Below, in pieces: positions 25,051 to 64,000 of a DNA stretch of 64,000 bases. Made by a program: the position numbers and the translations under genes. Position 1 is the stretch's first letter. Each line of letters starts with the position of its first letter. The DNA comes from a virus (lineage: Duplodnaviria; Caudoviricetes): IMG/VR virus record IMGVR_UViG_3300027708_000013. One strand, written 5' to 3'. The notes below the pieces were generated by a model that saw nothing but the letters and a program-made list of their open reading frames with translations, ran no database searches and was not told where the DNA came from.

Positions 25051-26254
25051 CACAATTTGTATGCTACCATGGATCAGTGTGGAGGCCAGTCCCATGGGCA
25101 CTGTACGGCCTTGCTGTTTGGCTCATGATGAGATCCCAGATGAGCAAGGAGTCAAGTACGATTTAAACAACACCGATCTTGAAACTGCGTATCACAGTGA
25201 GTATATGCAGGAGTTACGTAGGCAATTTCGTGCAGGTGCAAAGCCTGCCACCTGTACACGTTGTTGGGACGAAGAAGCCGCTGGCCGAGCCAGCAAAAGA
25301 ATACACACACAGATAAGACTAAAGGAATTATACCCAAAAGTGGACTGGGCAAACGATGACCCGGATCAACTGTGGTTTGTGGATTTGAAACTGGGAAACA
25401 TTTGCAATCTCAAATGTCGTATATGTGGCTCGTGGAGTAGCAGCAAGTGGGCTGAAGAGGAAATGGCCTACTTGCCCGCAGGCGTAGACAAAAAATCACA
25501 CATAGCCTATACCTGGTTACGACAGGGTGCATGGCCACGCAAGACTGCTACATTCTGGGACAACATGAGGTCATTGTTGCCCAATATACGGTATATAGAA
25601 TTCACCGGCGGTGAACCCTGGCTGATTGAAGAACATTTTGATCTTTTAAAGTATGCAGTGTTGCGTGGACACAGCAAGCATATTGACATTCATTACAACA
25701 CCAATGCCACACAAGAACCCTCACAAGAACATTTTAATTTATGGGACGAGTTCGGCCGTGTGGATATTGCGTTTAGCGTTGACAATGTTGGGGATAGATT
25801 TGAATATGAACGCTACGGTGCAAAATGGGATCAAGCAAATACAATAGTTGACAAAATACATGGTTTTAGAACATTTCGCCACGGTTCTATTACTACACAG
25901 TTATGTTTCACTATTAATATACAGAATGTCTACTACTTAGATGAGCTACTTGCCTGGGCCGACACAAAAAAGTTTGGTAGTGTGTACTTTAACATGTTGC
26001 ACAGTCCTGACCATATGAGCATACAGAACATGACACCAGCTGCACAAGAATTAGTGTTGAACAAACTCAAAACCGTATTTTGGACCAGCAGTAAATACCA
26101 ACAAGAAATTGACAGTGTAATTCGATTTATAGAACTTGGCTCGGGCAGTGATGGTCAAGAGTTTTTAAGACAGATGCAACAGACCGATGCTTATCGCAAG
26201 CAGTGTTTCGCGGATACACACCTAGAAATAGCCAAGGCAATGGGATATAAATAA
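25037..26254 (+). CDS. Radical SAM enzyme with N-terminal twitch/SPASM-like domain
   Basis: CNLKCRIC, TGGEP; N-terminal CMLPW..PCC..CTRCW. Confidence 0.85.
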   Translation: MTLPDTICMLPWISVEASPMGTVRPCCLAHDEIPDEQGVKYDLNNTDLETAYHSEYMQELRRQFRAGAKPATCTRCWDEEAAGRASKRIHTQIRLKELYPKVDWANDDPDQLWFVDLKLGNICNLKCRICGSWSSSKWAEEEMAYLPAGVDKKSHIAYTWLRQGAWPRKTATFWDNMRSLLPNIRYIEFTGGEPWLIEEHFDLLKYAVLRGHSKHIDIHYNTNATQEPSQEHFNLWDEFGRVDIAFSVDNVGDRFEYERYGAKWDQANTIVDKIHGFRTFRHGSITTQLCFTINIQNVYYLDELLAWADTKKFGSVYFNMLHSPDHMSIQNMTPAAQELVLNKLKTVFWTSSKYQQEIDSVIRFIELGSGSDGQEFLRQMQQTDAYRKQCFADTHLEIAKAMGYK

Positions 26255-27318
26255 TGCATCTTCAGCTTTGGGACATGTCATATTATTCCGGGGATTTAGC
26301 CTATTATAATTACCCGTGCGACAAAGAATTTGGTGATTTGTTATTTTTTTTAAAAAGAATAAAGACAAGGAAAAAAATTCACCTGACAGACATAATCCAT
26401 TGGAAAATGAAATATCCCTCAAAGGGATATGATGTATATATAATCTGTGCTTTTGGGGAATTTGTCAATGAAGAGTTTTTAAATCTAATAGATCAAGACA
26501 AGTACTTCAATAACAAGATGGTAATTTTATTAACTTCGCAGTATTGGGAGCCGAATAAATTCAACACAATAAAAGTATTTTATTTAGAACATTTACAAAC
26601 AATAATTAGATTTTTTAAACCAACAGAATCAAAAAATATTAAACAAAGAATCTACACACACGGAATATTATCTAGACGTACAACATTTCATAAAAGTTAT
26701 ATCTTGATAAATCTATTAGAACGTTTTTCAAAGGATCTACAGTATACATTTTGTAACGAGCCCGAGCACGAATATAGTTTAGAAAAATTGAGTCAAACTC
26801 TAGATATGTACTATCCTGGATTAACGCCAACCGATGCTCAATTAAATTTATTGACATATTTACACAACAATCCAACTGTAGTTGAGGGGCATCAGTGGTC
26901 GGTTGACAACAGGATTTATACAGAATCTCAACTGATTTGGACCACAGAGTCTATATTTTTATCTAGGCATAATGCCCCTACTGCATACCTAACTGAAAAA
27001 ACAATTAAATCACTGGTCAGTAGAACTCCGTTTATTATAGTAGGACAAAAACACAGTTACGCTAGAATAAAATCGTTGGGGTTCCTGGACTATACAGATG
27101 AATTCAACATACAGTTTGATGATTTATCCGATCTTGATCGTTTCGCAGGTGTAATTAATTTAATGGATACGTTTGATTTCGCTAGTTTTTTAACATCATC
27201 AACAGCACAAGAAATGGCAGATTATAATTATCATTATTTTTTCGATGGATTTGTTGATCATGCTAATCGACAAAATGAAGAAAAAATAGAACACATACTG
27301 GAATTTGTCAATGCATAA
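26254..27318 (+). CDS. GT10-motif-like protein
   Basis: TTES..YLTEKTIKS..TPFIIVG..LGF; AT-rich gene. Confidence 0.45.
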   Translation: MHLQLWDMSYYSGDLAYYNYPCDKEFGDLLFFLKRIKTRKKIHLTDIIHWKMKYPSKGYDVYIICAFGEFVNEEFLNLIDQDKYFNNKMVILLTSQYWEPNKFNTIKVFYLEHLQTIIRFFKPTESKNIKQRIYTHGILSRRTTFHKSYILINLLERFSKDLQYTFCNEPEHEYSLEKLSQTLDMYYPGLTPTDAQLNLLTYLHNNPTVVEGHQWSVDNRIYTESQLIWTTESIFLSRHNAPTAYLTEKTIKSLVSRTPFIIVGQKHSYARIKSLGFLDYTDEFNIQFDDLSDLDRFAGVINLMDTFDFASFLTSSTAQEMADYNYHYFFDGFVDHANRQNEEKIEHILEFVNA

Positions 27319-34159: not shown

Positions 34160-34368
34160 ATGACACCGCTGTTAGAAGTCTAGCCAAAGCTGTCAGTTGG
34201 CGAGTGACTGGAACTGTAGATACATTCCTAATAAGTTGGCTGATCACCGGTGAAGTGCTGTTGGCATCAGGTATAGCACTCACTGAAATAATCACTAAGA
34301 TATTTTTATTTTGGATGCACGAGCGAGTGTGGAACAGGATCTCTTGGGGACAGCAACGGCAAGATTAG
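34156..34368 (+). CDS. DUF2061-like small membrane protein
   Basis: RSLAKAVSWRVTGTVDT..HERVW pattern; ATGA overlap with the upstream gene. Confidence 0.75.
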   Translation: MNDTAVRSLAKAVSWRVTGTVDTFLISWLITGEVLLASGIALTEIITKIFLFWMHERVWNRISWGQQRQD

Positions 34369-35455
34369 TTTGCAACTCCTGCCAGCAATGATCTAAAAAA
34401 TCATTACTGTAAAACAGATTGTAGTTGTGATTTAATATGGGTGTCATTTCTCTCAACATGAATTCAAGATCCTGCATACCGTAACTGCAAATTTCCTCAA
34501 TCACCTCTGCCACAGCAGTCATGCGTAAGATGGGATCTTCTATGGCATCGTAACTTTCGTTGAACCAACGTCCGAATGTTCTAAAGCCATAACTGCGTAG
34601 GTATTCCAAGTTGTGTGCTGGTCCCACTAATACAAATGGCATACGACTCACAATGGGTTTGAATATTTTTTCAGTTAAATGACATTTGTGTTCCCAGTAA
34701 CAAGTTTCTGTAACCACGTAAACAAAACTTTCCTGTGTCTGTTCTACAGCACTCAGCACAAAACTATGATTGGGAATCGATTCATGGTCCTGATAATCTA
34801 TGCGTAACGGTAGTTGAATTTGGTTGATACTAGCAACAGCTTGCTCAGCAACAACTCTTGGCACCAAAGCCGAGGATAATAAATTTTCTTGATAAGTACC
34901 ACCTTCAGGACAGACATCATTGTAACTAACGTATCCATCATCGAGTATGTCACGTTGAAGCAATTCACTGATTAAGAGACTACGGTAAACTCGTGGTCCA
35001 CTGGTTAGTCGATTAAAGGTGATATATTTTTTAGTTAGTTGCCTTTCACCTGGTGCAATTAATAAAGGATTGTAACGGTATCCGCGAAACCAATCGTTTG
35101 CAGAAAAAGCGTGATGGAAATAATAAACAACCGGGCAACTGTATCGTTCTTGTATTAGATCTACCGAGTTGGAATTTTTTTCGGTTGTAACTAATATAAA
35201 CTGATCACCATCTAAGAAGTTTTTGCACACTTGATCAAATACGGGATAATTAAATTCTCCCAGTACGGGCTCTTGATCATAAAATACAAATAGAGGTCCG
35301 CGTTTTCCTGGCCAATGGCCCATATCAGTCATTAAGAATTCAAAATTTTCTGGTTGAGTTGAACCGTAGGGCATTAGGTAAATGAGCCTGGGATCTGTTA
35401 CAATAGTGTTTAAATACGAAAAGATATTTTCGTAATGACTGTGGATATTATACAT
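34295..35455 (-). CDS. GT10-motif-like protein
   Basis: VVTET..HLTEKIFKPI..MPFVLVG..LRSYGFRTF. Confidence 0.5.
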   Translation of the reverse strand: MYNIHSHYENIFSYLNTIVTDPRLIYLMPYGSTQPENFEFLMTDMGHWPGKRGPLFVFYDQEPVLGEFNYPVFDQVCKNFLDGDQFILVTTEKNSNSVDLIQERYSCPVVYYFHHAFSANDWFRGYRYNPLLIAPGERQLTKKYITFNRLTSGPRVYRSLLISELLQRDILDDGYVSYNDVCPEGGTYQENLLSSALVPRVVAEQAVASINQIQLPLRIDYQDHESIPNHSFVLSAVEQTQESFVYVVTETCYWEHKCHLTEKIFKPIVSRMPFVLVGPAHNLEYLRSYGFRTFGRWFNESYDAIEDPILRMTAVAEVIEEICSYGMQDLEFMLREMTPILNHNYNLFYSNDFLDHCWQELQTNLAVAVPKRSCSTLARASKIKIS

Positions 35456-52394: not shown

Positions 52395-52769
52395 CTACAG
52401 ATTTGATTGGAGATTGTTTAGATATGTAGCAAGATCGCCACCGTGTAACTGTAGCATCACAGCATCTGTTTCACTGTGGACATACAGTTGTTTGGTTGTG
52501 GTAAGGTAATAGGGTGCCTGAAAGATTCTTTCCAACTGCAACAGTTGCCGATAATGAATATCGGATGCCACAGCAACAGGGTGAAACGCAATATCAGTGT
52601 GCCGTTTAATCCAACGATAGCCCACAGTGGTTAATCTAAGACTGTGTGGGTTTAGTGGGTTCTTCCACCATTGATGTTCAACACCGGGCCAGGCAGAACC
52701 GGGCTCCACGTGATCAATTAAAAATTGAGTCCATGTGGCTTGTGAATTAAGGTCGGTAGACTGTGTCAC
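52395..52769 (-). CDS. Hypothetical protein
   Basis: 124 aa in the operon; SLRLT..G motif. Confidence 0.65.
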   Translation of the reverse strand: MTQSTDLNSQATWTQFLIDHVEPGSAWPGVEHQWWKNPLNPHSLRLTTVGYRWIKRHTDIAFHPVAVASDIHYRQLLQLERIFQAPYYLTTTKQLYVHSETDAVMLQLHGGDLATYLNNLQSNL

Positions 52770-53037
52770 CTTGCTTTAATAGCACAACAGTAAAGGCAGT
52801 GGTTTTAAAAAGAATGTTGAGTTTTTTGGCCAAGTTGATGGCATGACCTGAATTAGAGAATGAAACCTTCTTGTATTTTGGTCCAGGGTAATTTATCAGC
52901 ACGTTGAATGTTTTTAAATTGATAGGCTGGTTGTTGTAAAATATCGCCCAGATTCCTTCGCTGGCCAAAATTTGGTCACTTTTGTAGTTTGACTTGTTTA
53001 CATGTTCCAGCAGAACTGTTGGTTTTGGCCTACTCAT
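52747..53037 (-). CDS. Hypothetical protein
   Basis: MSRPKPTVLL..; GGAG RBS and TAAATA at 53068-53073. Confidence 0.75.
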   Translation of the reverse strand: MSRPKPTVLLEHVNKSNYKSDQILASEGIWAIFYNNQPINLKTFNVLINYPGPKYKKVSFSNSGHAINLAKKLNILFKTTAFTVVLLKQGDTVYRP

Positions 53038-53097
53038 TATCGATATCTCCCATACTTTTGATACAGTTATTTATCTCCTATAAGTGCGTATATTATA

Positions 53098-53313
53098 TTA
53101 AAATCCGCCGCCGTCCATGGTAATTTCCACAGCACCGGTGGTTACATCGGGTTGCTCACTGAGTTCAGCGATGTGTGACAGCAGTGCAAATATGTCCGCA
53201 TGCAGGTTACGTGCATCCTGAGCAGTCATGACCACGGTGGCACTTTGCGTTTGATTCATTACACGAATTCTGTCATTGAAGTTTCGTACATGTATGCTTA
53301 GTTTATGATCCAT
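53098..53313 (-). CDS. Hypothetical protein
   Basis: 71 aa, overlaps the upstream gene. Confidence 0.65.
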   Translation of the reverse strand: MDHKLSIHVRNFNDRIRVMNQTQSATVVMTAQDARNLHADIFALLSHIAELSEQPDVTTGAVEITMDGGGF

Positions 53314-53779
53314 TTGCTGTCCTTAGGTGTTGGTTGGCTGTTTCCTGTGTGTGAAATGGCCCTTGATATTCATAGCGATTTAAGGTAATGGCCTTGGGAC
53401 AATAGCCACGTGCCCAATGTGAATCAAACTTTACAATGTAGTAGCCAGCACAGAAAAAACTTTTGCTTTTGGCAGTTTTGGTGAAAATTGGCAACTGCCG
53501 TTGTACATCAAACAACACATTGTAAGGACGGTGTGGAGTGGGATAACCATAAATTTCGTAGGCTTTACCTTCTACAGCACGTGGTTTTTCCGGTTTAACA
53601 AATTCAATGTTGTATTTCTTGCTCAACAGTTTGATCGACGGGAATACTTCACGCTGGTCATTGCGAACATAGGCAACTCCTCCTTCGTCAATGGCCTGTA
53701 TGGTGGCAATCTTTTCTCCCGATGCTTCTACGATCCAAAATTTATTTTTTACTATTTGTTTTGCTATGGTTTCTGTCAT
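53303..53779 (-). CDS. Hypothetical protein
   Basis: Start moved to MTETIAK (53779), overlapping the upstream stop. Confidence 0.7.
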   Translation of the reverse strand: MTETIAKQIVKNKFWIVEASGEKIATIQAIDEGGVAYVRNDQREVFPSIKLLSKKYNIEFVKPEKPRAVEGKAYEIYGYPTPHRPYNVLFDVQRQLPIFTKTAKSKSFFCAGYYIVKFDSHWARGYCPKAITLNRYEYQGPFHTQETANQHLRTANGS

Positions 53780-54144
53780 GTTAGTGATCCTATTATTAGT
53801 ATGTAAGTCGCTGTGTGTAACAATTGGTCTAGACCCAACAACCACCAAAATTCTTCATGGGTAGTAGCAGTCCAACCGTAGTGCCGATTGATGTTGACCT
53901 TGGCCCAGTCAATGTGATAGTGTGCCACTGCATCTAATAAACCCATAAGAGAAGCAGTCATTTCATCATATCCAAACAATGCTAGGCATAGCATTGTAGC
54001 TGTGCCATGTAGGCCAGCATGTAGTACACCACCCGGGTGCCCATAGACACCTTTGTTTAGATATTGATAAGGCCTCTGTAGTAAAAAGTCCACAACAAAA
54101 TGCTTGACGAACAATACTAGAACCAGTGCAAGGGTAGTATTCAC
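53776..54144 (-). CDS. DUF3307-like membrane protein
   Basis: KHFVVDFLLQ, HAGLHG, HYHIDW, DQLLH. Confidence 0.75.
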   Translation of the reverse strand: MNTTLALVLVLFVKHFVVDFLLQRPYQYLNKGVYGHPGGVLHAGLHGTATMLCLALFGYDEMTASLMGLLDAVAHYHIDWAKVNINRHYGWTATTHEEFWWLLGLDQLLHTATYILIIGSLT

Positions 54145-54187
54145 GTTATTCTTTCAAACAGCTCATGGTGATTATTTTTTTGCCCAG

Positions 54188-54481
54188 TCATGACTTCAAC
54201 AACTCCATGCTGACAATGTGTCCAATGGCAGTGGTGATGTCTTCGCCCTCGGGAATAACATGTGTGACCAAGTTATCTTGATCTGTTTTACGATTGTAAG
54301 TGTGAATCTGCACAACAGTTCCGCCCTGTGCTGGCATAACCTTAAATGACAAACCTTCAACTTCAACGTGAGCATGATTTCTGCCCGCTTTTGTATTGTA
54401 TATATCTTCGCTCTCGTAGCCGCGGCCGCGGTTGTAATCCCAGCCCCACTTCATCATTGCCGACCAAACTTTTCTAATCAT
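54188..54481 (-). CDS. Hypothetical protein
   Basis: 97 aa, ATGA overlap with rnh. Confidence 0.65.
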   Translation of the reverse strand: MIRKVWSAMMKWGWDYNRGRGYESEDIYNTKAGRNHAHVEVEGLSFKVMPAQGGTVVQIHTYNRKTDQDNLVTHVIPEGEDITTAIGHIVSMELLKS

Positions 54482-55470
54482 TTGGGATAACTTCTTGACA
54501 AAAATTCCACGTAACTGGCGGCTTGATCGCTGATACGCTTTAAATCATATTTTCCACAAAACTTTAAAAACAGTGTGCCAATCTGACTCACTGCCTTGGG
54601 CACTGATCCGGCAACAACGGTTTCTGTTATTTTTGCTTTGACATCGTCGGGCTGTGCAGATAAATCCACCAGTGTAACATTGCGTTGATAATCGTCCAGC
54701 ACTCTGTGTTCTACACCGTTGTGGTCAGTCCAGCGACTCAGCATTAAATTATTCCACGCAAAGCCTTTTTTATCCCGGTCTTCGTAGGCTTCTTTAAGTC
54801 CAACTTTATTCTTACTGCCAGTCGTCCTGACTCCAGGGTACGCACTGAATACGTTGTCTGTGGGGTCGCCTCGCATAGCTTTTTCAAATAAGATCCAACT
54901 TGGATCAGGGATGGATCGGTTTTCCTTAGTCTTTTTATCTTTGACTGGGGCACCTTTTTTGTCAAAAATGCCCGTAATAGTGTGGAGCTCATCTGCTATC
55001 CCGTTGTATTGTTTTACGTTTTCACTTAGTAGTTGATAAAAGTCTGTGTCACTGCTGACTATGACATGCTCGTCTTCAGGATGTGTCTGTATCCATCCGG
55101 CAATTAAATCATCTGCTTCTAACTCAGCGTGTTGTAGCACTGTGCAATTGGTCTTTTCTGTTAAAAAAGTTTTAAGTTCATCAAAACTTTCCCAAAATAA
55201 TCGATCTTCTTCTGCCTCAGCCTCGGTCAAGGCCGCACGGGCCACCGCACGATTCTTTTTGTATGGCTCGTAAAAGTCCTTACGCCAACTTCTACCTTCC
55301 AAGCAGAACACCACATGATCGGCCCGTTGATCTCGAAAAGCCTTGTTTACACTGCCCAAGGTAACATGTATGGCAAAGCCCAATTTATCCCATGTATCTG
55401 TTTGTCTATGGGCCGAGTGTCTTGCACGAAAGAATGTGTTTGCAGTGTCAACTATTAGATATTTTGTCAT
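54478..55470 (-). CDS. rnh: T4-type RNase H / 5'-3' exonuclease
   Basis: IVDTAN, EGRSWRK, EADDLI, SSDTDFYQL, GDPTDNV. Confidence 0.9.
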   Translation of the reverse strand: MTKYLIVDTANTFFRARHSAHRQTDTWDKLGFAIHVTLGSVNKAFRDQRADHVVFCLEGRSWRKDFYEPYKKNRAVARAALTEAEAEEDRLFWESFDELKTFLTEKTNCTVLQHAELEADDLIAGWIQTHPEDEHVIVSSDTDFYQLLSENVKQYNGIADELHTITGIFDKKGAPVKDKKTKENRSIPDPSWILFEKAMRGDPTDNVFSAYPGVRTTGSKNKVGLKEAYEDRDKKGFAWNNLMLSRWTDHNGVEHRVLDDYQRNVTLVDLSAQPDDVKAKITETVVAGSVPKAVSQIGTLFLKFCGKYDLKRISDQAASYVEFLSRSYPK

Positions 55471-55476
55471 ACAGTA

Positions 55477-55505
55477 ATAATAGCATATAACTATTTAGCA
55501 GTCAA
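55477..55505 (-). promoter_or_regulatory. sigma70-type promoter (leaderless rnh) with nested TAAATA
   Basis: TTGACT(55505-55500)-17 nt-TATTAT(55482-55477), ATG 6 nt later; TAAATA at 55492-55497. Confidence 0.65.
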
Positions 55506-56189
55506 CAAGATTTCTGCTATTTCCTCGTTGGATTTGAATCCATAGTGCAATCCGTCTCGAGCAACATCGCACAACAGGTTCTGTTGGCTATATCTGCGGT
55601 TGAATTCGGCAATACTGAATTCCTTTACTTTGAATTTATAAATTTTGCTCAACAATGCAACTCTTGATTGATTTTGGTAAAATCTTTGAACAGCAACAGA
55701 GTCTTCCATATTCCATACATATTCTATTTTTGGATTCATTGGCATAATGTTCTGTATTTCGTTACCGTACAGTTCAAATCTGGCCATGTCTGGCCAAAGT
55801 ATGTAAATAGTTTGTATCTGATATAGTCCACATACATTGGTTAATATTCTTGCCACTGTGTCGGTACTGCCGCCGCTGTAACCCAAGTTTAACATAGGGT
55901 ACGGACGGTTCTTTTCGATCAGTGAGGGCCATGTACTGTCCTCTGGCATGCCCACTCCTTGAGTGAAACTGCACCCCAGGGCGATGTCTACTTTTTTGTT
56001 GTACATCTCCTCTAAATCATATGTTCTAAATCCCTGTGCATTGAATTGATACGCTATCTCAACTCCGCTCCACTTTTCCCGATCAGCGTTTTGTGACAAC
56101 GCTGTTTCAGTGTCACTACCATACCAATTCTGTGTGACATTTTTTACATTTGAATTCCACGGTATCTGTTGTGTTAGCCAATGATTCAT
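55491..56189 (-). CDS. SGNH/GDSL-like protein
   Basis: ALGCSFT, NLGYSGGS, DGLHYG. Confidence 0.55.
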   Translation of the reverse strand: MNHWLTQQIPWNSNVKNVTQNWYGSDTETALSQNADREKWSGVEIAYQFNAQGFRTYDLEEMYNKKVDIALGCSFTQGVGMPEDSTWPSLIEKNRPYPMLNLGYSGGSTDTVARILTNVCGLYQIQTIYILWPDMARFELYGNEIQNIMPMNPKIEYVWNMEDSVAVQRFYQNQSRVALLSKIYKFKVKEFSIAEFNRRYSQQNLLCDVARDGLHYGFKSNEEIAEILLTAK

Positions 56190-56190
56190 A

Positions 56191-56889
56191 TTATCTCGTT
56201 AAAAATTTCAACACCATTTGCTTGTATAAGAATTCCGCCCAGGCTTGGTGTGCTGCTGCACCAAAATGGTAACTGTCAGGAGCCACTGTAGCAAACCCAT
56301 GGTTTTTACACCAGTTGTAATACGTGAAGTCGGGATTGTAAGGTTCCAGGTAGCGACCATTCCAATCAAACTGCTCAACACCGGTCCAGGGTTCATAACT
56401 AGTGAAGAAAAAATGATTTATGCCCAATCTTTCCAACTCTTGATGAAAATTGTAAATGTACTGATGCGAACGATTCATGGTGGGTTGCCATTGGAATTCT
56501 GTCACCCATTTCCGATACTGTTCTTTTATCTGCTGGGGCCAATCTTCACCCGCCCCGCCAGCATTTATTTGCCACCATACATCATCATAAAACCACTCTT
56601 CACGTTCCCATGTGCTCCAGCCAATGATGACTAAATCGGGTCTGGGATTATTTTTTAGATATTGCCCAGTGGTTCTTATTATTCTACTGTTGCTGGCAGC
56701 ACTTTCGGCATCACAGTGCAACACGGCACCCAACTGATTGGCTATGTGACAACCGTAACTTGCCCGTTCATTGTCAGGATGAGGCCTACGAGCCAAGGCC
56801 CAGTATAGTGGGTCGTCATTGGCAAAACAATAACCGTTCACTGCTTCCGCTCCAGCACTATGACTGTCGCCGTTGACGTAAAGAATCAA
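56191..56889 (-). CDS. SGNH/GDSL-like protein
   Basis: VNGDSHS, ESAASN, SYHFG..AH. Confidence 0.55.
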   Translation of the reverse strand: MILYVNGDSHSAGAEAVNGYCFANDDPLYWALARRPHPDNERASYGCHIANQLGAVLHCDAESAASNSRIIRTTGQYLKNNPRPDLVIIGWSTWEREEWFYDDVWWQINAGGAGEDWPQQIKEQYRKWVTEFQWQPTMNRSHQYIYNFHQELERLGINHFFFTSYEPWTGVEQFDWNGRYLEPYNPDFTYYNWCKNHGFATVAPDSYHFGAAAHQAWAEFLYKQMVLKFLTR

Positions 56890-57363
56890 TTAACTGATCT
56901 CGGTTTTGCCGTCGCCTAGATCTCGACGATCCAGCACTCTTGGTCTAGCTTCATAAGGTTGATTGGCTTCCCACTGTTCGTAGTTTTCCTGCACCACATT
57001 GCGACACACATCCTGAAACCAACGATCCACAATAGCACTTTCATCTTCGCCCGGCTTGCTTTGATAACCTTGACGCACCAAGTTGACAATGAATTTTTCA
57101 TTCCAATCCAGTTCAAATGCACCGTTGCCAATGTTGTCTGGATCCAAGTCCACTTTGACCACACTGACCCAAGGCTCACCTTTGAGTGTAGCTGTGTCTT
57201 TGGGCGACATGTCACCCAATCGTGCCCACGTGTCCAATGCATCATCAGCATCTGCAGTTTTTTTTGTTGCGGCTTTTTGTCGCTTGGGCTTGGGTGCTGG
57301 TGGAGATGCCGGCTCGGGTGCGGTCTCTGGATTTGCTTTTTTAAATCGATCAAATATTCCCAT
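56890..57363 (-). CDS. Hypothetical protein
   Basis: 157 aa, AAGGA RBS; GEPWV..GAFELDWN motif. Confidence 0.75.
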   Translation of the reverse strand: MGIFDRFKKANPETAPEPASPPAPKPKRQKAATKKTADADDALDTWARLGDMSPKDTATLKGEPWVSVVKVDLDPDNIGNGAFELDWNEKFIVNLVRQGYQSKPGEDESAIVDRWFQDVCRNVVQENYEQWEANQPYEARPRVLDRRDLGDGKTEIS

Positions 57364-57366
57364 TTA

Positions 57367-57657
57367 TTATCCTTTCAATAACCATATTAAGTGTTCTACT
57401 GTGCTGTGATATCTAACAACGTGTACTGGTGGTCTCGGAATCGCAACAGCAGAAGTTGAATCACTGTGATTATTATAAGCACCGCGGTATGCTGTTTCCA
57501 ACCACATCAGCCGTCCACTTATGTCACAACGCTGAGGCCACCATAAAAACAGCAACCGCCATTCAATGTGTTCGCGGTACCATTCAGCTACCCAGTCTTC
57601 AGTCATTGATCTCCTGCCGGGTCCTAGTATTCCTGGCATGGGCATTACGTACCCCAC
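57367..57657 (-). CDS. Hypothetical protein (start uncertain, possibly 57606)
   Basis: Fills the gap between queE and 57363. Confidence 0.5.
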   Translation of the reverse strand: MGYVMPMPGILGPGRRSMTEDWVAEWYREHIEWRLLFLWWPQRCDISGRLMWLETAYRGAYNNHSDSTSAVAIPRPPVHVVRYHSTVEHLIWLLKG

Positions 57658-58496
57658 TCGTTCTTGAAAAGCGGCACTTGAAGTCTGTCACTGTATCTCC
57701 AACCACGCTTCATAGCCGCCCCTGCTACATTACGTGCATTCAGTGAGTACACACTTTCCACACCACCCACTGGCATCAAGTACACAGGACCTGTAAAGCC
57801 TGCACTACGATATGCACCCACGGCACATTCTGCATCAGCAACATCTTGTTGTGTGGCCACAACAAATTTCAAATACGCTGTTCCATAATTTTCATATTCG
57901 CATACAACATCTGGAAGAATAGCTTCTTCCCACTTTTCACCTGACGCTGGAAGTTTAGCACTAACACTAAACGTAACTTCTTTTGAGTTTTCATAAACCC
58001 AATCTTCTAAATAACTTTTAAATTCTTCTGTTAGTTTTTGAGTGCCATTTGTTTCAAAGGTTATTTCTTTCAAAGCCTTCAAACTGGGATGATCTAGTAA
58101 ATCTGGGTAGGCACGTTGCCATCCCAACAAAGGTTCCCCTCCAGTGATCACAAGATGTTCGTCTCTCCACTCACCATGTGGTAAGATCTCCATGATACGA
58201 GCCACAATGGCATCCGTAGTCAACATGGGACTGAGCTGTTTAAAGTCCGGATGCCACGACGCATAACTGTCACAACCAGTTGACACCAATGGTAATGCCT
58301 CATATCGTGGGTAAGGATACAACTCATGTATTGCGGCCAAGTCATCGGCTTCGGTACTTGACTCGCCACGTGGCATGCCAAATCCGCTACAAGTGAAGTT
58401 ACACCCAAATGTTCGAAGGAACACACTGGGTACTCCCATGTATCTTCCTTCTCCCTGGATTGAATAAAACAGTTCTGCTATTTTAATCTTGCTCAT
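57645..58496 (-). CDS. queE: 7-carboxy-7-deazaguanine synthase (radical SAM)
   Basis: ELFYSIQGEG, VFLRTFGCNFTC, GCDS, VITGGEP, FETNGT, KFVV, YLMP, RLQVPLF. Confidence 0.9.
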   Translation of the reverse strand: MSKIKIAELFYSIQGEGRYMGVPSVFLRTFGCNFTCSGFGMPRGESSTEADDLAAIHELYPYPRYEALPLVSTGCDSYASWHPDFKQLSPMLTTDAIVARIMEILPHGEWRDEHLVITGGEPLLGWQRAYPDLLDHPSLKALKEITFETNGTQKLTEEFKSYLEDWVYENSKEVTFSVSAKLPASGEKWEEAILPDVVCEYENYGTAYLKFVVATQQDVADAECAVGAYRSAGFTGPVYLMPVGGVESVYSLNARNVAGAAMKRGWRYSDRLQVPLFKNEWGT

Positions 58497-58764
58497 CGAA
58501 TATTGTACTCCACTTTCGTAATTTGTTAAATTTGTTTTGTTTTGCTACGGTTATTTCTGATTCTGTTACCACACCGTGTTGTTTTAACAGCTCAATCATG
58601 GCCACTACATCGCCAATTTCTTTCACTAAGTTTTCACGTTGTGTGCCTGATTCTTTGAGGTACACATTGTCCATACCAAAACGTCTACACTTGCTGATGC
58701 TTTGTATCACCTCGGCACACTCTTCTTGTAGTATATCTAATATTTCTGTTATCTTGCTAGTCAT
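58483..58764 (-). CDS. MazG-like nucleotide pyrophosphohydrolase
   Basis: LQEECAEVIQ..KC.RFG..KEIGDV (EExxE..ExxD). Confidence 0.75.
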   Translation of the reverse strand: MTSKITEILDILQEECAEVIQSISKCRRFGMDNVYLKESGTQRENLVKEIGDVVAMIELLKQHGVVTESEITVAKQNKFNKLRKWSTIFDEQD

Positions 58765-59483
58765 TTTCTTGCAATTCCATTTAAAACTAAATTAGTTTGT
58801 TCCTGCATCACTTGATCCAGTGTGGTGTTTATAGACAATCCCAACTTGGGTGCTATTATTTTATTACAATATTCCCAATGAGTCAATGGTGTTGGGTGAT
58901 TATCTGTGCCATCTGGGTGATATTGATGTCGAGTCAACATGTATTGATTGTTTTGTTCTTGATAATCCAGCAAGGAAATTCCCTCGACATGATTGTTGGC
59001 AATATTATATTTTTTATATATGTCCAACAATTTGGCATCTACCTCTTTTTCTGTTTCGCCTGTAAAAAACGGAAAAGCTGAAAAATGATACACAGTATAT
59101 TTTTTTCTATAACTGTCACAGTCAACCAAATACATGTAATCCATTGTGGTTTGAAAACGTTCCACACAGTGATAAAAATTGACTAAAAATGTTTTGTCTC
59201 CTCGTATACTGCCCAGGTGATGCCAGTGTGGATCATGTTTATTGGACGGACTTGATTTTGGTGTATCTCGATACCTGGACCAACGATCAAATCCAGACCA
59301 CATGATCACCACTGTATCACCGGATCGGGCTTGATCAACCACCGATCGTGCAATGGTGGCATTGTCTCCACCAGCGATGCCTACGTTGCGAAACTCATTA
59401 AATTCTGCACCGAGATAGTCGGCCCAAGTACTCCAACAGTAATCAGTAAAACTACACCCCGACACTACTAATCTTGTGTTCAT
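58761..59483 (-). CDS. SGNH/GDSL-like protein
   Basis: VSGCSFT, IAGGDN, DNHPT..H. Confidence 0.55.
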   Translation of the reverse strand: MNTRLVVSGCSFTDYCWSTWADYLGAEFNEFRNVGIAGGDNATIARSVVDQARSGDTVVIMWSGFDRWSRYRDTPKSSPSNKHDPHWHHLGSIRGDKTFLVNFYHCVERFQTTMDYMYLVDCDSYRKKYTVYHFSAFPFFTGETEKEVDAKLLDIYKKYNIANNHVEGISLLDYQEQNNQYMLTRHQYHPDGTDNHPTPLTHWEYCNKIIAPKLGLSINTTLDQVMQEQTNLVLNGIARK

Positions 59484-59484
59484 A

Positions 59485-60435
59485 TCAAATTCCCAAATTC
59501 TGTATTTTATTGTGATTTTCTATCATGTATTCTTCAAATCTCGTTCTATTATTGATCAATCTCGGCAATAGTTTTTGATATAACATATTTAGATCTGACG
59601 GGCGTTTATCAAAGTTTTTTAATATCTCCGCAATGGCATGTGCCCGGTCACGCCAATGCGGGAGACTCCACCAAGTACCAAATACATCATCAAAGGTATC
59701 AAATCCCGATTGATGCAATTGATTGTATAAATTATCGTCACCTAATATTAAAAATGGACGTAGGCCAATAATGGGTTTCCATGATTTCTCACTGAGAAAA
59801 ACATTGGAATGTTTGCAGGATTCTGTGACCACATTGATAAAAATTTGATTCCATATTGTGGGATCGCCTAGGCTAAAAATGTCGTTGGCTATTTTTCCAA
59901 TGTTTTCTGGTTCGTGAGGATCAAACTGCTTTACATCATAGTGCGGATCAATGAATCCTTGAGTACTTTGACTCACAATTCCATGATCTTTCACACTGGC
60001 AAGTTGTTCTAAAAATTCAATTCTAAACGGATGCAGTTTTCTATTTAAACATAGATATAATTTTTTTATATTGGGTGCTTGAGTATAACGTTGATCAAAG
60101 AAATACTCAGGATTTTGTCGTATAAACTCCACCCAATAACTAAAATAATACTGCCCATAACTGTTACCAATGTGTATTTGTGCTCTAGATCGATTGCAAA
60201 TTATTTCATGTGCTGCAGTTCTAAGAGGAATACATCCTGTGCTCTCCCAATCAATACTGGAATAACACACTGCAATTTTTTTACAATCTAGTTTATCAAG
60301 TTCTGTATCTGTTGCAGTGATACCACTGGTATCAATGAAAACATGATCCTGTGACAGTTGCGGTAGTATTTGTTCAATGATATAGCAATTGACTTTCCCA
60401 CGCCGAGATAAATTAAACGGTTTATTATATGCCAT
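59485..60435 (-). CDS. GT10-motif-like protein
   Basis: INVVTES..FLSEKSWKPI..RPFLILG..GFDTF. Confidence 0.5.
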   Translation of the reverse strand: MAYNKPFNLSRRGKVNCYIIEQILPQLSQDHVFIDTSGITATDTELDKLDCKKIAVCYSSIDWESTGCIPLRTAAHEIICNRSRAQIHIGNSYGQYYFSYWVEFIRQNPEYFFDQRYTQAPNIKKLYLCLNRKLHPFRIEFLEQLASVKDHGIVSQSTQGFIDPHYDVKQFDPHEPENIGKIANDIFSLGDPTIWNQIFINVVTESCKHSNVFLSEKSWKPIIGLRPFLILGDDNLYNQLHQSGFDTFDDVFGTWWSLPHWRDRAHAIAEILKNFDKRPSDLNMLYQKLLPRLINNRTRFEEYMIENHNKIQNLGI

Positions 60436-60461
60436 TGATTTTTATTGCTTGTGCTGTGGAT

Positions 60462-60665
60462 TCAACATTGGTTCCAATGTCTTACTACACCTGCGATTAT
60501 AACAAAATTTGTTATTATGTATATCAACACAATTACTGTGCGAACACCGGCGACGCCGTCGGCTTCTTGATCAGTAGCACCAGTTTTTTCACCCAGTGCC
60601 TTGGCCCAAATTCTCCAAAGATGCCTAACCTTCGTAGATGGCACTGTTGGCTCCATGTTCAGCAC
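60462..60665 (-). CDS. Small membrane protein (start uncertain)
   Basis: WRIWAKALGEK..EAD..RTVIVLIYIITNFVIIAGVVRHW, one TM segment. Confidence 0.55.
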   Translation of the reverse strand: MLNMEPTVPSTKVRHLWRIWAKALGEKTGATDQEADGVAGVRTVIVLIYIITNFVIIAGVVRHWNQC

Positions 60666-61251
60666 ATTCCGCTCTTACACAGTAACAACGACCATTGGTT
60701 TTTTCTCTAATCAATTGATCGGCAAAATAAAATGCATGTTCGGCAAATTTCTCTGCACCCACACCATTGAATATTCTAATTTCGGCTAATCCCAACTCTT
60801 CCAGTTCTTGGAATTTGGCAAGATATGGATCAGCGAGATCCAACGCCAATTTATGATCAAAGTTATCTTCTAACCATGCCTTGAGCGGTTTGAGTCCGCC
60901 AAAGTCCACTGCCCAGTTTTTATCATCTAATTCATCGCAACCAAATGTAAATGTAAATGCTAGACTGTAACCATGTAGCAAATGACAATGACTGTGATCT
61001 GCGTTGGGTTGACGAAACACAGCACTGAGTCCTATGTTGTGTCCGTAGTGCTTGGTTGAGTAATATTTTGCCCCAGACCTTTGCCCTGTTTCGGCAATGT
61101 CATTGAGTGCTTGCTCGGTTGATTGAACTGTATTGCGTAACTGTTCAATGTATTCAGATGTCTCGTCACTATTTGCCTTGGTGCTATGGTAATGGTTGAT
61201 TCGAGCATCAAAATAGTCGCTCAGTGCTGATGTGAAAGTTTTATTTGCCAT
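60625..61251 (-). CDS. queD: 6-carboxy-5,6,7,8-tetrahydropterin synthase with N-terminal extension
   Basis: HCHLLHGYS, DFGGLK, FDHK, GAEKFAE, ECAEHGANSAIY; AGGAG RBS. Confidence 0.85.
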   Translation of the reverse strand: MANKTFTSALSDYFDARINHYHSTKANSDETSEYIEQLRNTVQSTEQALNDIAETGQRSGAKYYSTKHYGHNIGLSAVFRQPNADHSHCHLLHGYSLAFTFTFGCDELDDKNWAVDFGGLKPLKAWLEDNFDHKLALDLADPYLAKFQELEELGLAEIRIFNGVGAEKFAEHAFYFADQLIREKTNGRCYCVRAECAEHGANSAIYEG

Positions 61252-61330
61252 TGTATTCTCCTATGTTAGATTATAGCATAGACTTGCAGAATTTGTATAG
61301 CGGGAATGAAAGCCAGAAAGGCCGCTTGAA
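61252..61330 (-). ncRNA. Candidate cis-regulatory RNA (preQ1-I-like pseudoknot plus RBS hairpin) upstream of queD
   Basis: P1 AGCGG/CCGCU, 18-nt loop ending in C, A-rich tail AUACAAA, P2 GGCUU/AAGUC, and a CUAUG/CAUAG hairpin overlapping the AUAGGAG RBS. Pairings assigned by eye only. Confidence 0.4.
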
Positions 61331-61337
61331 ACAGTAT

Positions 61338-61889
61338 TTATTGTTGCCACCAAGTTTCCCAAGGAAAACAAATCCACACCGGGTCTTCCAGTTTGTTGAT
61401 GTCCGTCCCCGAATAGTCCACCAAAAACTCACTCGCAGTGTTGTTCACCAGCACAGCAGTGCGTACATTGTGATGCCAGACGTTCAGCCAACGATCGTGA
61501 TTGGGCAAACAACTGCTTTGCCAATCCTCCCGAATCCAAGCCAGTGTGGCACCGGAATCATTGATGTCGTCTACTATTAATATACGTTTAGCATGTATGG
61601 TGTAGTCAAATGCACTGTTGGTGCCCAGGCCTTGATATCCGCCATCCACCCAACCGAATGCATCTTCGGCCATGCTGAGATTACTTGTACGCTCATCTCC
61701 GTCACGCAAACTCACATCCAGACTCCGCATTGGTACGCCCAAATAATGACTCAACATCAATGCCGGAGTCAATCCACCACGTGTGAGTCCCACAATGTAA
61801 TCGGGGCGCCATGAGCCCTCGTGCAGGTCACGTATAATTTCATGCACCCAACCACGAACATCTGCATCGGTGTAATAGATTTTTTTCAT
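61338..61889 (-). CDS. Type I phosphoribosyltransferase (xanthine/guanine PRT-like)
   Basis: IVGLTRGGL, ILIVDDINDSGATL (PRPP-binding loop), WICFPWE. Confidence 0.85.
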   Translation of the reverse strand: MKKIYYTDADVRGWVHEIIRDLHEGSWRPDYIVGLTRGGLTPALMLSHYLGVPMRSLDVSLRDGDERTSNLSMAEDAFGWVDGGYQGLGTNSAFDYTIHAKRILIVDDINDSGATLAWIREDWQSSCLPNHDRWLNVWHHNVRTAVLVNNTASEFLVDYSGTDINKLEDPVWICFPWETWWQQ

Positions 61890-62635
61890 CTTGGAGCAAA
61901 GTCCTGTTGTAGTTTGATATTGTCCATGAACTCTTTTTTAGTTCCTGGGTCTGTGTTGAACGCACCTTTGAGTACTGTGGTCTGTGTCAAACTACTATGT
62001 GCCATGATGCCTCTATTGGTGCAACATCCATGTTCCGCCTGTATGTAAACTCCAATATGTTCCGAATCTGTTGCTCTCATTATTTCTTTTGCGATGTCGT
62101 TGCAGAGCTCTTCTTGTAAAGTACCACGCCTAGCACACCACTGAGCAATCCTAGTGTACTTGCTAAGACCAATAAGTTTGTTAGCGGCGATAATACCAAT
62201 GTAAGCCACACCACTAACAGGCTGATGATGATGACTACACATACTACGCAACTCACTTCTAATAACCAACATACCTTCATATCTATCCTCGCTATCATTT
62301 GGAAAAGCTGTTGCATCTGGTGCTGCATCATATCTACCCGCCATCGTTTCGTTAAAATACATTTTAGCCAATCGCTTGGCAGTGCCCTTGCTGTTTGGAT
62401 CCGTTTCTCTATCAATCAGCAAGCGATCTAAAACAGTTTCGAATGCCTCAGCGGCTTCGTTGATCAATTGTCGTTTGACGGCATCATTATTGACATATTC
62501 GCTAATATTGTCTCCAGCCCAAAATCTTTTACCATTTCGTTTCATTGTGGCACGAATCACGTCTGATACTGGGCATAGTTGATAACCACCGTCACCTGCC
62601 ATTGCGGCTAGGCCTGTTTCTTTTTTATTTGTCAA
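61886..62635 (-). CDS. folE: GTP cyclohydrolase I
   Basis: TAKRLAKMY, SMCSHH, GLSKYTR, QEEL, HGCCTNRG; TTG start with GGGAG RBS. Confidence 0.95.
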   Translation of the reverse strand: MTNKKETGLAAMAGDGGYQLCPVSDVIRATMKRNGKRFWAGDNISEYVNNDAVKRQLINEAAEAFETVLDRLLIDRETDPNSKGTAKRLAKMYFNETMAGRYDAAPDATAFPNDSEDRYEGMLVIRSELRSMCSHHHQPVSGVAYIGIIAANKLIGLSKYTRIAQWCARRGTLQEELCNDIAKEIMRATDSEHIGVYIQAEHGCCTNRGIMAHSSLTQTTVLKGAFNTDPGTKKEFMDNIKLQQDFAPR

Positions 62636-62658
62636 TTAGTTCTCCCGTGTATTGTGTT

Positions 62659-62687
62659 ATTGTATAGTATTTAGATTCAAGTGTCAA
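62659..62687 (-). promoter_or_regulatory. sigma70-type promoter of the folE operon with nested TAAATA
   Basis: TTGACA(62687-62682)-17 nt-TACAAT(62664-62659); TAAATA at 62668-62673. Confidence 0.75.
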
Positions 62688-62743
62688 ATAATTATGAACA
62701 TATATTATATAATAAATACCAAAACAATGTGATTATATTCAAA

Positions 62744-63826
62744 ATGAAACGTGCCGTTCTTTGTGTTGCCAATCCGCAGGACTATATCAATCAACTTGAT
62801 GATTACAGTATTATGATTGTCAATCCTGATGCTCCCGTGTCACGACAGCAGTATCTACTAGATAATTCAGATTGGAGCCTGCTGATCACAGCCGATGGTG
62901 AGCAACATCGTGACGGTGCCGACTACCCCAATGAACGAGTGTTATGGTATACTTCGGGCACCACCGGCGACAGTAAGTTTTGCAGTTTTAGTCAACGACA
63001 ATTAAACCATATGGCCGAAACCATTGTACAAGCATATGATCTAACCGAACAGGATAGGTATGTCAGTGTCATGAGTCTTTGGCATGCACACGGGCAAGGA
63101 TTTTATTGGGCCACACAGTTGGCTGGATGTGAAACACACTATCTTTCAGTTAAAAACCTACGTGCCTGGCCCAGCTACAGTCCTACCTTTGTCACTGCCA
63201 TACCTGATGTATTACAAACCGCCACTCAGTTAAAATTTGATAACAATCTAAGGTTTATACGCACAGCCAGTGCTCCATTGCCTGATCGGTTGTACACTGC
63301 ACTACGAGAATGTTTCGACGTCCCGGTATTGGAAGCATTTGGTATGACCGAGGCAATGAGTCATTGTTTTACCAATCCCTTACACGGTGAGCAAAGAATG
63401 GGCACCGTGGGTTTACCGTCAGGAGTTGAAGCTCAAATTGATGATGGGCACCTGTTGTTGCGTGGTCCCACTTTGGATAGAGAGGTATGGTTTGACACCG
63501 GTGACTTGGCCGAGCAAGATGAAAAAGGATACTATCGAATACTTGGTCGCAGCCGTGATCAAATCAATGTCAAAGGTGTTAAATTAAATCCGTTGAGTCT
63601 GGAACAAAAAATACTTGAGAATATCGCCGGAGTGTCGGCGGTGGCAGTGTTTGGCTCAGATTCGGTTAAATGTGTTTATGTTGGATCTGTTGACAGTAAA
63701 GAAATTCAACAATTCTTAATTGATCTAGCACCATACTGTCGAGCCACAGTATTGGAATCTGTTTCTGCTATACCCTTGACTCCTGCAGGTAAAGTATCCC
63801 GCAGTTTGTTAAATACTCTTTACTAA
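62744..63826 (+). CDS. AMP-binding (ANL superfamily) acyl-CoA synthetase-like ligase
   Basis: YTSGTTG, RTASAPL, EAFGMTE, FDTGDL, GRSRDQINVKG, GKV. Start moved to ATG 62744; TAAATA at 62713. Confidence 0.85.
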   Translation: MKRAVLCVANPQDYINQLDDYSIMIVNPDAPVSRQQYLLDNSDWSLLITADGEQHRDGADYPNERVLWYTSGTTGDSKFCSFSQRQLNHMAETIVQAYDLTEQDRYVSVMSLWHAHGQGFYWATQLAGCETHYLSVKNLRAWPSYSPTFVTAIPDVLQTATQLKFDNNLRFIRTASAPLPDRLYTALRECFDVPVLEAFGMTEAMSHCFTNPLHGEQRMGTVGLPSGVEAQIDDGHLLLRGPTLDREVWFDTGDLAEQDEKGYYRILGRSRDQINVKGVKLNPLSLEQKILENIAGVSAVAVFGSDSVKCVYVGSVDSKEIQQFLIDLAPYCRATVLESVSAIPLTPAGKVSRSLLNTLY

Positions 63827-64000
63827 AGTATTTTAAGTTATAAACTGGTGTTTTGGTTAACTTGTATATTTTGTGTTGCTAACAAAACATAAAGATTGTC
63901 TGTTGTCGTGTAGTAGTGTATATTCGTAATGGTCAAGAATCATTTGATATTAATTAATCTACAATCGGGATAGTCAAAATGCTTGTCAAGTTGAGGAGTG

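Follow-up and report, generated by a model that had tools for sequence, protein, structure and literature searches.

Modification of DNA with 7-deazaguanine is a widespread anti-restriction strategy. According to the published model, every 7-deazaguanine modification of DNA depends on a DpdA that acts once replication is over (PMC10516641). The closest described system is that of Cellulophaga phage phiST, which comprises FolE, QueD, QueE, DpdL, DpdA3 and a MazG/dUTPase-like gene (Cui et al. 2023, PMC10516641), and in phages of this type 100% of dG is replaced by 2'-deoxy-7-deazaguanine (dDG) (PMC10516641). DpdL is a T-fold protein, proposed to decarboxylate 7-carboxy-7-deazaguanine (CDG), and is distinguished from QueD by the signature LxxxHRHxF (PMC10516641). 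In the Pseudomonas jumbo phage PA5oct, the DNA resists restriction enzymes with G in their sites, pointing to a modified G (preprint, PMC12191111). Here, we analyze a stretch of 64,000 nucleotides of viral DNA (Duplodnaviria; Caudoviricetes; IMG/VR record IMGVR_UViG_3300027708_000013), called the window below, which carries near its end (57645-62687, minus strand) an operon that combines the deazaguanine genes folE, queD and queE with genes for a purine-type phosphoribosyltransferase (PRTase) and for a MazG-like enzyme. A previous reading of the window, made from the sequence only, had proposed that the latter two enzymes could define a nucleotide-level, pre-replicative route to deazaguanine-containing DNA. 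We find that the locus fits the post-replicative DpdA model once the neighbouring DNA is read, and we favour, with moderate confidence, the view that it is the half that makes the base in a phage system for 7-deazaguanine modification of DNA, one of the CDG-terminated, phiST-like type.

The base-synthesis operon and the genes beyond the window

Eight tightly packed genes occupy the minus strand between 57645 and 62687, five of which were assigned by family searches (Pfam, PHROGs and NCBIfam; the scans with hidden Markov models (HMMs) took in about half of the open reading frames (ORFs) of the window). The features on which the argument depends are listed below in window coordinates, or in window-equivalent coordinates for the two genes that lie past its end.

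57645..58496, minus strand: queE, CDG synthase, 283 aa (phrog_2076, E 1.5e-51)
58483..58764, minus strand: MazG-like all-alpha NTP pyrophosphohydrolase, 93 aa (PF03819, 22.7 bits, cut-off 22; phrog_4856, E 1.1e-23)
60625..61251, minus strand: queD, 6-carboxytetrahydropterin (CPH4) synthase, 208 aa (PF01242 (PTPS), E 3.6e-12; phrog_2389, E 1e-36)
61338..61889, minus strand: purine-type PRTase, resembling xanthine-guanine PRTase (XGPRT), 183 aa (PF00156, E 8e-12)
61886..62635, minus strand: folE, GTP cyclohydrolase I, 249 aa, TTG start (PF01227, E 1.5e-39; phrog_2197, E 6.9e-44; NCBIfam FolE models)
71117-71560: DpdL homologue (P0006), 147 aa, with the LxxxHRHxF signature, 7.1-7.6 kb past the window end
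72080-73675, minus strand (L004:19337-20932): predicted TGT/DpdA-fold protein (P0004; TGT, tRNA-guanine transglycosylase), 531 aa, 8.1-9.7 kb past the window end

The order and strand of the operon genes given by the sequence-only reading (FolE, PRTase, QueD, a small ORF, two further genes, MazG-like, QueE) agree with the Pfam, PHROG and NCBIfam assignments. The overlaps it described are real and amount to 4 nt for folE/PRTase and 14 nt for MazG/queE. The boundaries of folE coincide with the public gene call on an identical contig (L004, see below). QueD contains the motif CxxxHGY and an N-terminal extension of about 60 aa, while QueE matches the NCBIfam QueE models from E 3e-15, under the model cut-offs, and is 48% identical to QueE of Synechococcus phage BUCT-ZZ01. 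The MazG-like protein has a marginal PF03819 score and carries in its translation the motifs EECAE and EIGD (ExxE ... ExxD, metal-binding); a comparison of this protein with the PDB returned spurious matches only.

The arrangement is conserved among relatives. In 21 IMG/VR contigs with a PRTase 48-96% identical to the one studied here, the genes follow the order FolE-PRTase-QueD-(MazG)-QueE, with the same small gene and virion-protein gene after QueE; the coupling of folE to the PRTase gene is found here and in all 21, and the order is kept down to 48% PRTase identity. The MazG-like gene lies between QueD and QueE in 13 of these loci and was undetected in the remaining 8. A megablast search of the region against a phage collection of 50,697 records found nothing. 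The source phage is a freshwater jumbo phage with a genuine 7-deazaguanine base-synthesis operon.

The sequence-only reading had placed neither queC nor dpdA inside the window, and a six-frame motif scan of the 64 kb indeed finds no SGGxDS PP-loop and no DSGG[F/Y]Q. It had also cautioned that both genes may lie outside. The gene of an adenylate-forming (ANL) ligase that adjoins folE was found on a 154-kb JGI metagenome contig, and the locus taken from this contig (L004) reproduces window positions 52744-64000 (11,257 bases, 0 mismatches) and extends 9.8 kb further. On this same DNA, 7-10 kb past the end of the window, are the genes of a TGT/DpdA-fold protein and of a DpdL homologue. The caution was therefore justified for dpdA, for which the candidate lies 8.1-9.7 kb past the end. 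No PP-loop motif, and no QueC, was found in the 74 kb covered by the window and L004 together.

The DpdL homologue is 32% identical to phiST DpdL CGPG_00067 (E 5e-17) and matches phrog_17812 (E 5.5e-32); its LANSHRHIF corresponds to LxxxHRHxF in place of the QueD-type CxxxHGH. The 531-aa protein was recognized by its predicted structure. Folded with 57 homologues, it gave a model with pLDDT 88.5 and pTM 0.89 (the single-sequence model had pLDDT 33), whose top 50 Foldseek matches in the PDB are all tRNA-guanine transglycosylases (E ~4e-8). A search independent of Foldseek returned ArcTGT (Z 18.5), QTRT2 (16.9), TGT (16.3), the DNA preQ0 insertase DpdA (7ui4, 15.5) and Cap10 (14.7), all of them above the generic TIM barrels, which reach Z 11.7 or less. 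Among viral models, the matches include annotated phage TGT/DpdA proteins, the Vibrio phage nt-1 protein and phiST DpdA3; the E-values are 1e-10 to 1e-11 for the nt-1-/Motura-type proteins and 5.8e-3 for phiST DpdA3 (BFVD). The residues D103-S104-G106 (GDSGGFQ), D149 (LDxPT), H268, G271 and D301 (FDC) are invariant in the 57 sequences, are the ones required for TGT chemistry, and align in order with D102, D156, Q203 and the GG motif of Z. mobilis TGT, the FDC motif being the sole basis for equating D301 with TGT D280. Thus, the modelled fold and the conserved motifs argue that this protein is a transglycosylase of the TGT/DpdA superfamily, and that the phage encodes a predicted DpdA-family enzyme just outside the window. 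With such an enzyme nearby, the main reason for postulating a DpdA-free, pre-replicative route falls away.

The family of this protein is well conserved: a word-indexed search retrieved at least 7,416 homologues, many of them 70-90% identical, and 879 cluster representatives were found at 50% clustering. The locus adds a very large subfamily of candidate transglycosylases of about 530 aa that goes undetected by Pfam, PHROGs and NCBIfam, and whose member in PA5oct (gp168) carries the annotation hypothetical. Three relatives with complete or near-complete genomes have the DpdA-like gene, and the trio of DpdA-like gene, a gene for a 173-aa protein and dpdL lies upstream of the operon wherever the fetched flank is long enough. 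The 173-aa protein matches no family and does not resemble phiST CGPG_00066, and the Atlas returned nothing above noise for it.

A pathway that stops at CDG and hands over to DpdL, like that of phiST, has no need of QueC. The QueC model PF06508 has no match in PA5oct or in the genomes G001 and G002, and two complete relatives gave only sub-threshold, N-terminal PP-loop matches to the QueC model. Judging from its genes, the system appears to be a QueC-less, CDG-terminated, phiST-like (dDG-type) branch of Dpd-type DNA modification. In one complete relative (L024 ~11900-12650; G003:190252-190443), a 252-aa ORF directly after queE shows a weak QueC-like PP-loop match (19-24 bits, within the N-terminal 60 residues only). 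Some relatives may process CDG differently.

The phosphoribosyltransferase and its distribution

The PRTase has the core of type I enzymes and is about 25% identical to E. coli Gpt. Its best solved relative is the purine PRTase of P. horikoshii (1vdm, E 2.4e-9), and it matches the NCBIfam xanthine PRTase model at E 1.6e-7, far under the equivalog cut-off. In the alignment with Gpt, R37-G38-G39 (TRGG), D88/D89/D92 (VDDINDSG), W134 (W172 here) and I135 are kept, i.e. the pyrophosphate loop, the acidic motif that binds phosphoribosyl pyrophosphate (PRPP) and the aromatic stacking residue of type I 6-oxopurine PRTases are all present. K115 of Gpt, which we take to be the Lys contacting the 6-oxo group of the base, is replaced by Asn in this PRTase and its close family; the homologues from phiST and from the Brevundimonas phage StAshley have Lys. 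The family from jumbo phages additionally contains two insertions, of ~30 and ~17 aa, one of which falls at the catalytic flexible loop.

A tblastn search of the phage collection identified homologues in 8 records, which comprise phiST-type Cellulophaga phages, Synechococcus phage BUCT-ZZ01 and two Brevundimonas phages. The PRTase of PA5oct-type phages was found with an HMM, and the freshwater family brings the number of lineages to five. FolE, QueD and QueE are encoded in each of these as well; in four of them the PRTase gene abuts folE or queE, and in three it stands next to folE. QueE matches occur in just 140 of the 50,697 records, so that the co-occurrence of the PRTase with deazaguanine genes is not a matter of chance. 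We therefore agree with the sequence-only reading that the PRTase belongs to the module, as its translation is coupled to that of folE in the window and in the 21 related contigs, and as it recurs in the phage collection only in lineages with deazaguanine genes. On the other hand, 9 of 13 DpdL lineages lack any PF00156 protein in their whole records, as judged by the same search that found the PRTase in all positive controls. StAshley is a PRTase carrier with a full QueC, which shows that the PRTase also occurs outside the CDG/DpdL branch.

The genes of StAshley (L030, 5308-25757) are laid out as QueC-QueD-QueE-x-x-DNA polymerase-ribonucleotide reductase beta/alpha-dNMP kinase-FolE-PRTase, which places the deazaguanine and PRTase genes among those of dNTP supply.

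The association of a purine-type PRTase with the deazaguanine genes in five phage lineages goes unmentioned in the literature we searched: queries on deazaguanine, on PRTase with DpdA and on pre-replicative 7-deazaguanine led to no paper on such a PRTase. Either the enzyme closes a recycling loop from guanine to GTP to deazaguanine, or it supplies the step that a nucleotide-level route would otherwise lack. As PA5oct can be cultivated, both readings are open to tests at the bench.

Guanine salvage and the competing scenarios

As regards the PRTase, we lean tentatively towards guanine salvage that feeds FolE. In this scheme FolE, QueD and QueE would convert GTP to CDG, the DpdL homologue would act as the proposed CDG decarboxylase, and the 531-aa transglycosylase would replace guanine in already replicated phage DNA with 7-deazaguanine or one of its derivatives. 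The PRTase would convert guanine to GMP and thereby to GTP, with the guanine either released stoichiometrically by the base exchange or derived from degraded host DNA; such salvage would both refill the substrate pool of FolE and remove the competing product of a reversible exchange. The MazG-like enzyme would act on some (d)NTP. While the identities of the genes, the fold and motifs of the DpdA-like protein, the DpdL signature, the synteny and the pattern of co-occurrence are shown, we infer which product is made, that DNA is the target, and what the PRTase and the MazG-like enzyme do.

Salvage accounts for the XGPRT-like residues of the PRTase, for its adjacency to folE, for its occurrence with and without QueC, and for its dispensability, as a host Gpt can substitute for it. 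Indeed, the closest families are XGPRT and the 6-oxopurine PRTases, whose PRPP loop, stacking Trp and Asp at the position of Gpt D92 are all retained; the gene stands next to that of the GTP-consuming FolE in three lineages, accompanies QueC in StAshley and does without it elsewhere, and is dispensable in the 9 DpdL lineages.

Several observations weigh against this interpretation, beginning with the transglycosylase itself. Sequence searches with the 531-aa protein gave no significant TGT/DpdA match in Pfam, PHROGs, NCBIfam or the PDB; phmmer and a profile of 57 sequences found nothing significant in the PDB, TGT appearing only at E 2.6, and a Pfam scan of the 57 family members reported TGT in 2, at E 0.043 or weaker. 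No Cys cluster that would correspond to the TGT zinc site (CxCxxC...H) is evident in residues 300-420 of its translation. The product could be dDG, dCDG or a further tailored base, as the dpdA operon runs into sugar-modification genes. In the PRTase, Asn takes the place of K115, the residue by which Gpt binds the 6-oxo group. Salvage does not explain why the PRTase was found only in deazaguanine phages (the 8 tblastn records and the PA5oct-type phages), nor does it explain the embedded MazG-like gene. The decarboxylase activity of DpdL is itself a prediction, and an attempt to reconstitute it together with DpdA in E. coli was unsuccessful (PMC10516641). Finally, phages of the phiST type replace 100% of G (PMC10516641), which is more typical of routes through the dNTP pool.

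It is tempting to set against guanine salvage a scenario modelled on tubercidin biosynthesis, in which TubE, a purine-type PRTase, uses CDG and PRPP rather than 7-deazaguanine, and a decarboxylase acts afterwards (PMC6112128). The TubE cluster also encodes GTP cyclohydrolase I, CPH4 synthase and a radical S-adenosylmethionine (SAM) enzyme (PMC6112128), so that the same logic would apply to the FolE, QueD, QueE, PRTase and DpdL of the phage. The PRTase would couple CDG or 7-deazaguanine to PRPP, and DpdL would decarboxylate the base or the nucleotide; kinases and a ribonucleotide reductase, from the host or the phage, would then yield 7-deaza-dGTP for the polymerase, while the MazG-like enzyme destroyed dGTP and the DpdA-like enzyme patched residual G or served another target. 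We regard this nucleotide-level route as possible but doubtful, and the more specific proposal that the PRTase is the phage counterpart of TubE, with the polymerase supplied with 7-deaza-dGTP, MazG trimming dGTP and the DpdA-like enzyme finishing or proofreading, as rather unlikely. If true, it would be the first pre-replicative 7-deazaguanine pathway, and it would explain the exclusive association of the PRTase with deazaguanine genes, the embedded MazG-like gene, the complete replacement in phiST and the failed reconstitution with DpdL and DpdA3. In its favour, the homologues of the PRTase in the phage collection were found only in lineages with FolE, QueD and QueE, a MazG-like gene lies within the operon here and in the phiST cluster, and the family has Asn for K115 and two insertions of its own (one at the catalytic flexible loop). 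phiST, in which 100% of dG becomes dDG, has the PRTase, and DpdL and DpdA3 alone gave no dDG in E. coli, the authors noting that other enzymes may be needed (PMC10516641). A route through modified dGTP was moreover proposed earlier for Campylobacter phages (PMC6884629) and set aside once DpdA3 was found; a version of it based on a PRTase did not appear in the literature searched. However, the operon goes together with a conserved enzyme of the DpdA family whose catalytic motifs are intact, the active-site residues of the PRTase are XGPRT-like, and the 9 of 13 DpdL lineages without a PF00156 protein make do without the PRTase, even though one from the host could substitute. The full QueC of StAshley indicates that the link is not specific to CDG, and the Asp that contacts the purine N7 in canonical enzymes is invariant and would sit beside the 7-carboxylate of CDG. 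The MazG-like proteins, too, belong to different PHROGs here and in phiST, and in 8 of the 21 related loci the gene was undetected. Thus, from the original proposal of a nucleotide-level route through the PRTase and MazG we retain the membership of the PRTase in the module, and not the need for a route that bypasses DpdA.

Large phages often carry MazG-like and salvage genes. It is therefore conceivable that the PRTase and the MazG-like enzyme are general auxiliary genes of nucleotide metabolism, which boost purine pools in a slow-growing freshwater host and came to their present place by chance, and the absence of the PRTase from most DpdL phages, as well as its position in phiST, 18 kb from the que genes and next to ribonucleotide reductase, would suit this scenario. 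We consider it improbable in view of the 4-nt overlap of folE and the PRTase gene, the order FolE-PRT-QueD-(MazG)-QueE kept to 48% PRTase identity, and the presence of deazaguanine genes in five of five PRTase lineages when just 140 of 50,697 records match QueE. The modification of RNA appears far less probable still: enzymes of the TGT fold are classically tRNA enzymes and the best structural match is ArcTGT (Z 18.5), from which one might expect that the protein puts 7-deazaguanine into the phage's own tRNAs. However, this match covers residues 21-352 of ArcTGT and leaves its C-terminal tRNA-binding domains outside, and no QueC was found from which preQ0 or preQ1 would result. DpdL has so far been tied to dDG in DNA (PMC10516641), and the homologous PA5oct has restriction-resistant, G-modified DNA (PMC12191111). 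Guanine salvage coupled to post-replicative base exchange is thus the scenario that we prefer.

Surrounding genes and the closest known systems

The remaining features of the operon and its flank are as follows.

58761..59483, minus strand: 240-aa protein (labelled SGNH in the sequence-only reading), variable cargo
59485..60435, minus strand: 316-aa protein (labelled GT), from a phage family without a name, variable cargo
60462..60665, minus strand: small ORF, 67 aa, hydrophobic C-terminus (phrog_1679, E 4.8e-25)
62659..62687, minus strand: putative sigma70-like promoter upstream of folE, TTGACA-17-TACAAT, 11 of 12 positions
62744..63826, plus strand: compact ANL (adenylate-forming) ligase, 360 aa, divergent from folE (PF00501, E 4.8e-28)

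The labels GT and SGNH were not confirmed: neither ORF has a match in Pfam, PHROGs or NCBIfam, and both are missing from the operons of the relatives. The 316-aa ORF has paralogues in the glycan cluster of the window (34295-35455, 19352-20299 and 26254-27318), its sole GT10 signal being a lead of 0.80 from a language model; the 240-aa ORF has a weak paralogue at 23009-23749. None of the 21 related contigs has either gene in its operon, and in the closest relative QueD abuts MazG. Their absence from the operons of all these relatives marks them as a lineage-specific insertion that does not belong to the pathway. We also considered them as cryptic DpdA candidates, which was rejected: BLAST against phiST DpdA3 gave nothing, and both genes are variable cargo. 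Evidently, the operon is a hotspot for the insertion of cargo genes such as these two. Compared with the operon of the window, relatives (L018, L009-L016) show spacings between FolE and PRTase and between PRTase and QueD that vary by 0.3-5 kb. The 67-aa ORF overlaps the 3' end of queD, and its homologue precedes the MazG gene in one relative (L025).

The promoter that had been described upstream of folE holds as a sequence, with 11 of the 12 consensus positions; at 62687-62659, TTGACA-17-TACAAT is the best-scoring site within 57000-63000. A second promoter-like site (61299-61270, minus strand; 10 of 12 positions and a TG extension) lies in the 86-nt gap between the PRTase gene and queD (61252-61337, minus strand), which matches no Rfam family. 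A search of 57000-63000 against Rfam at E up to 1 revealed no preQ1 or other riboswitch.

The ANL ligase lacks approximately the first 100-160 residues of the usual N-domain, and among solved structures it comes closest to oxalate- and malonyl-CoA ligases (E 2e-24). Its place beside folE is kept in 8 related loci, and the closest relative has the gene twice. This protein is a possible accessory that could activate a small carboxylate, any connection to CDG being a guess.

Downstream of dpdL (L004:11197-18362, minus strand; window-equivalent 63940-71105) the operon goes on with genes for an NDP-sugar epimerase, a radical-SAM enzyme, a hexapeptide acyltransferase, a short DegT-like protein and several unknowns, which suggests that the deazaguanine, or something else, is further tailored. 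Downstream of queE (54478-57363, minus strand) are a small ORF, a virion-protein-like gene (phrog_13349), two 232-aa unknowns and a 5'-3' exonuclease gene; this order mirrors gp161-gp159 of PA5oct and indicates a distant kinship with Wroclawvirus-type jumbo phages.

Among the known systems, that of phiST is the most similar. Like the locus studied here, it combines FolE, QueD (CGPG_00071, 44% identical to QueD here, E 5e-42) and QueE with a DpdL that bears LxxxHRHxF, and has no QueC; the order of TGT-fold gene, unknown gene and dpdL is shared, the cluster includes a MazG-like gene, and the genome encodes a PRTase homologue that is 31% identical. On the other hand, phiST DpdA3 has 259 aa compared to 531 aa here, with a likeness at the level of the fold only (BFVD E 5.8e-3) and no BLAST signal. 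The gene between dpdA and dpdL is unrelated to the 173-aa gene, the MazG-like protein belongs to another PHROG, and the PRTase gene, which is within the folE operon here, is not so placed in phiST; the comparison is drawn from the genes alone.

In the Pseudomonas jumbo phage PA5oct (Wroclawvirus), a distant relative, the block gp168-gp162 contains counterparts of the DpdA-like protein (gp168, 34% identical), DpdL (gp166, 50%), the PRTase (gp163, PF00156 E 6e-10) and QueE (gp162), followed by the virion protein and then the exonuclease as here. No MazG-like gene was seen in this block, and these deazaguanine genes are annotated as hypothetical. FolE and QueD are encoded outside it, and the preprint names gp230 as PTPS (PMC12191111).

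The pathways of tubercidin and toyocamycin (TubC/A/B, TubE, TubF; ToyH) follow the same enzyme logic, with GTP cyclohydrolase I, CPH4 synthase, CDG synthase, a PRTase and decarboxylation (PMC6112128). They differ in that they belong to actinomycete secondary metabolism and lead to a free nucleoside, the tubercidin pathway employing a UbiD/prFMN decarboxylase instead of the T-fold DpdL and no TGT-fold enzyme. With E. coli Gpt and the archaeal 6-oxopurine PRTases, the phage PRTase shares the type I core and differs in the Asn at K115 and in the two insertions. The 2-aminoadenine (dZ) system of PurZ/MazZ/DatZ offers a further analogy, since it likewise pairs base-synthesis genes with a MazG-like NTP pyrophosphohydrolase; the difference is that the phage studied here has, in place of a PurZ-like synthase acting at the nucleotide level, a predicted enzyme that would exchange the base in DNA.

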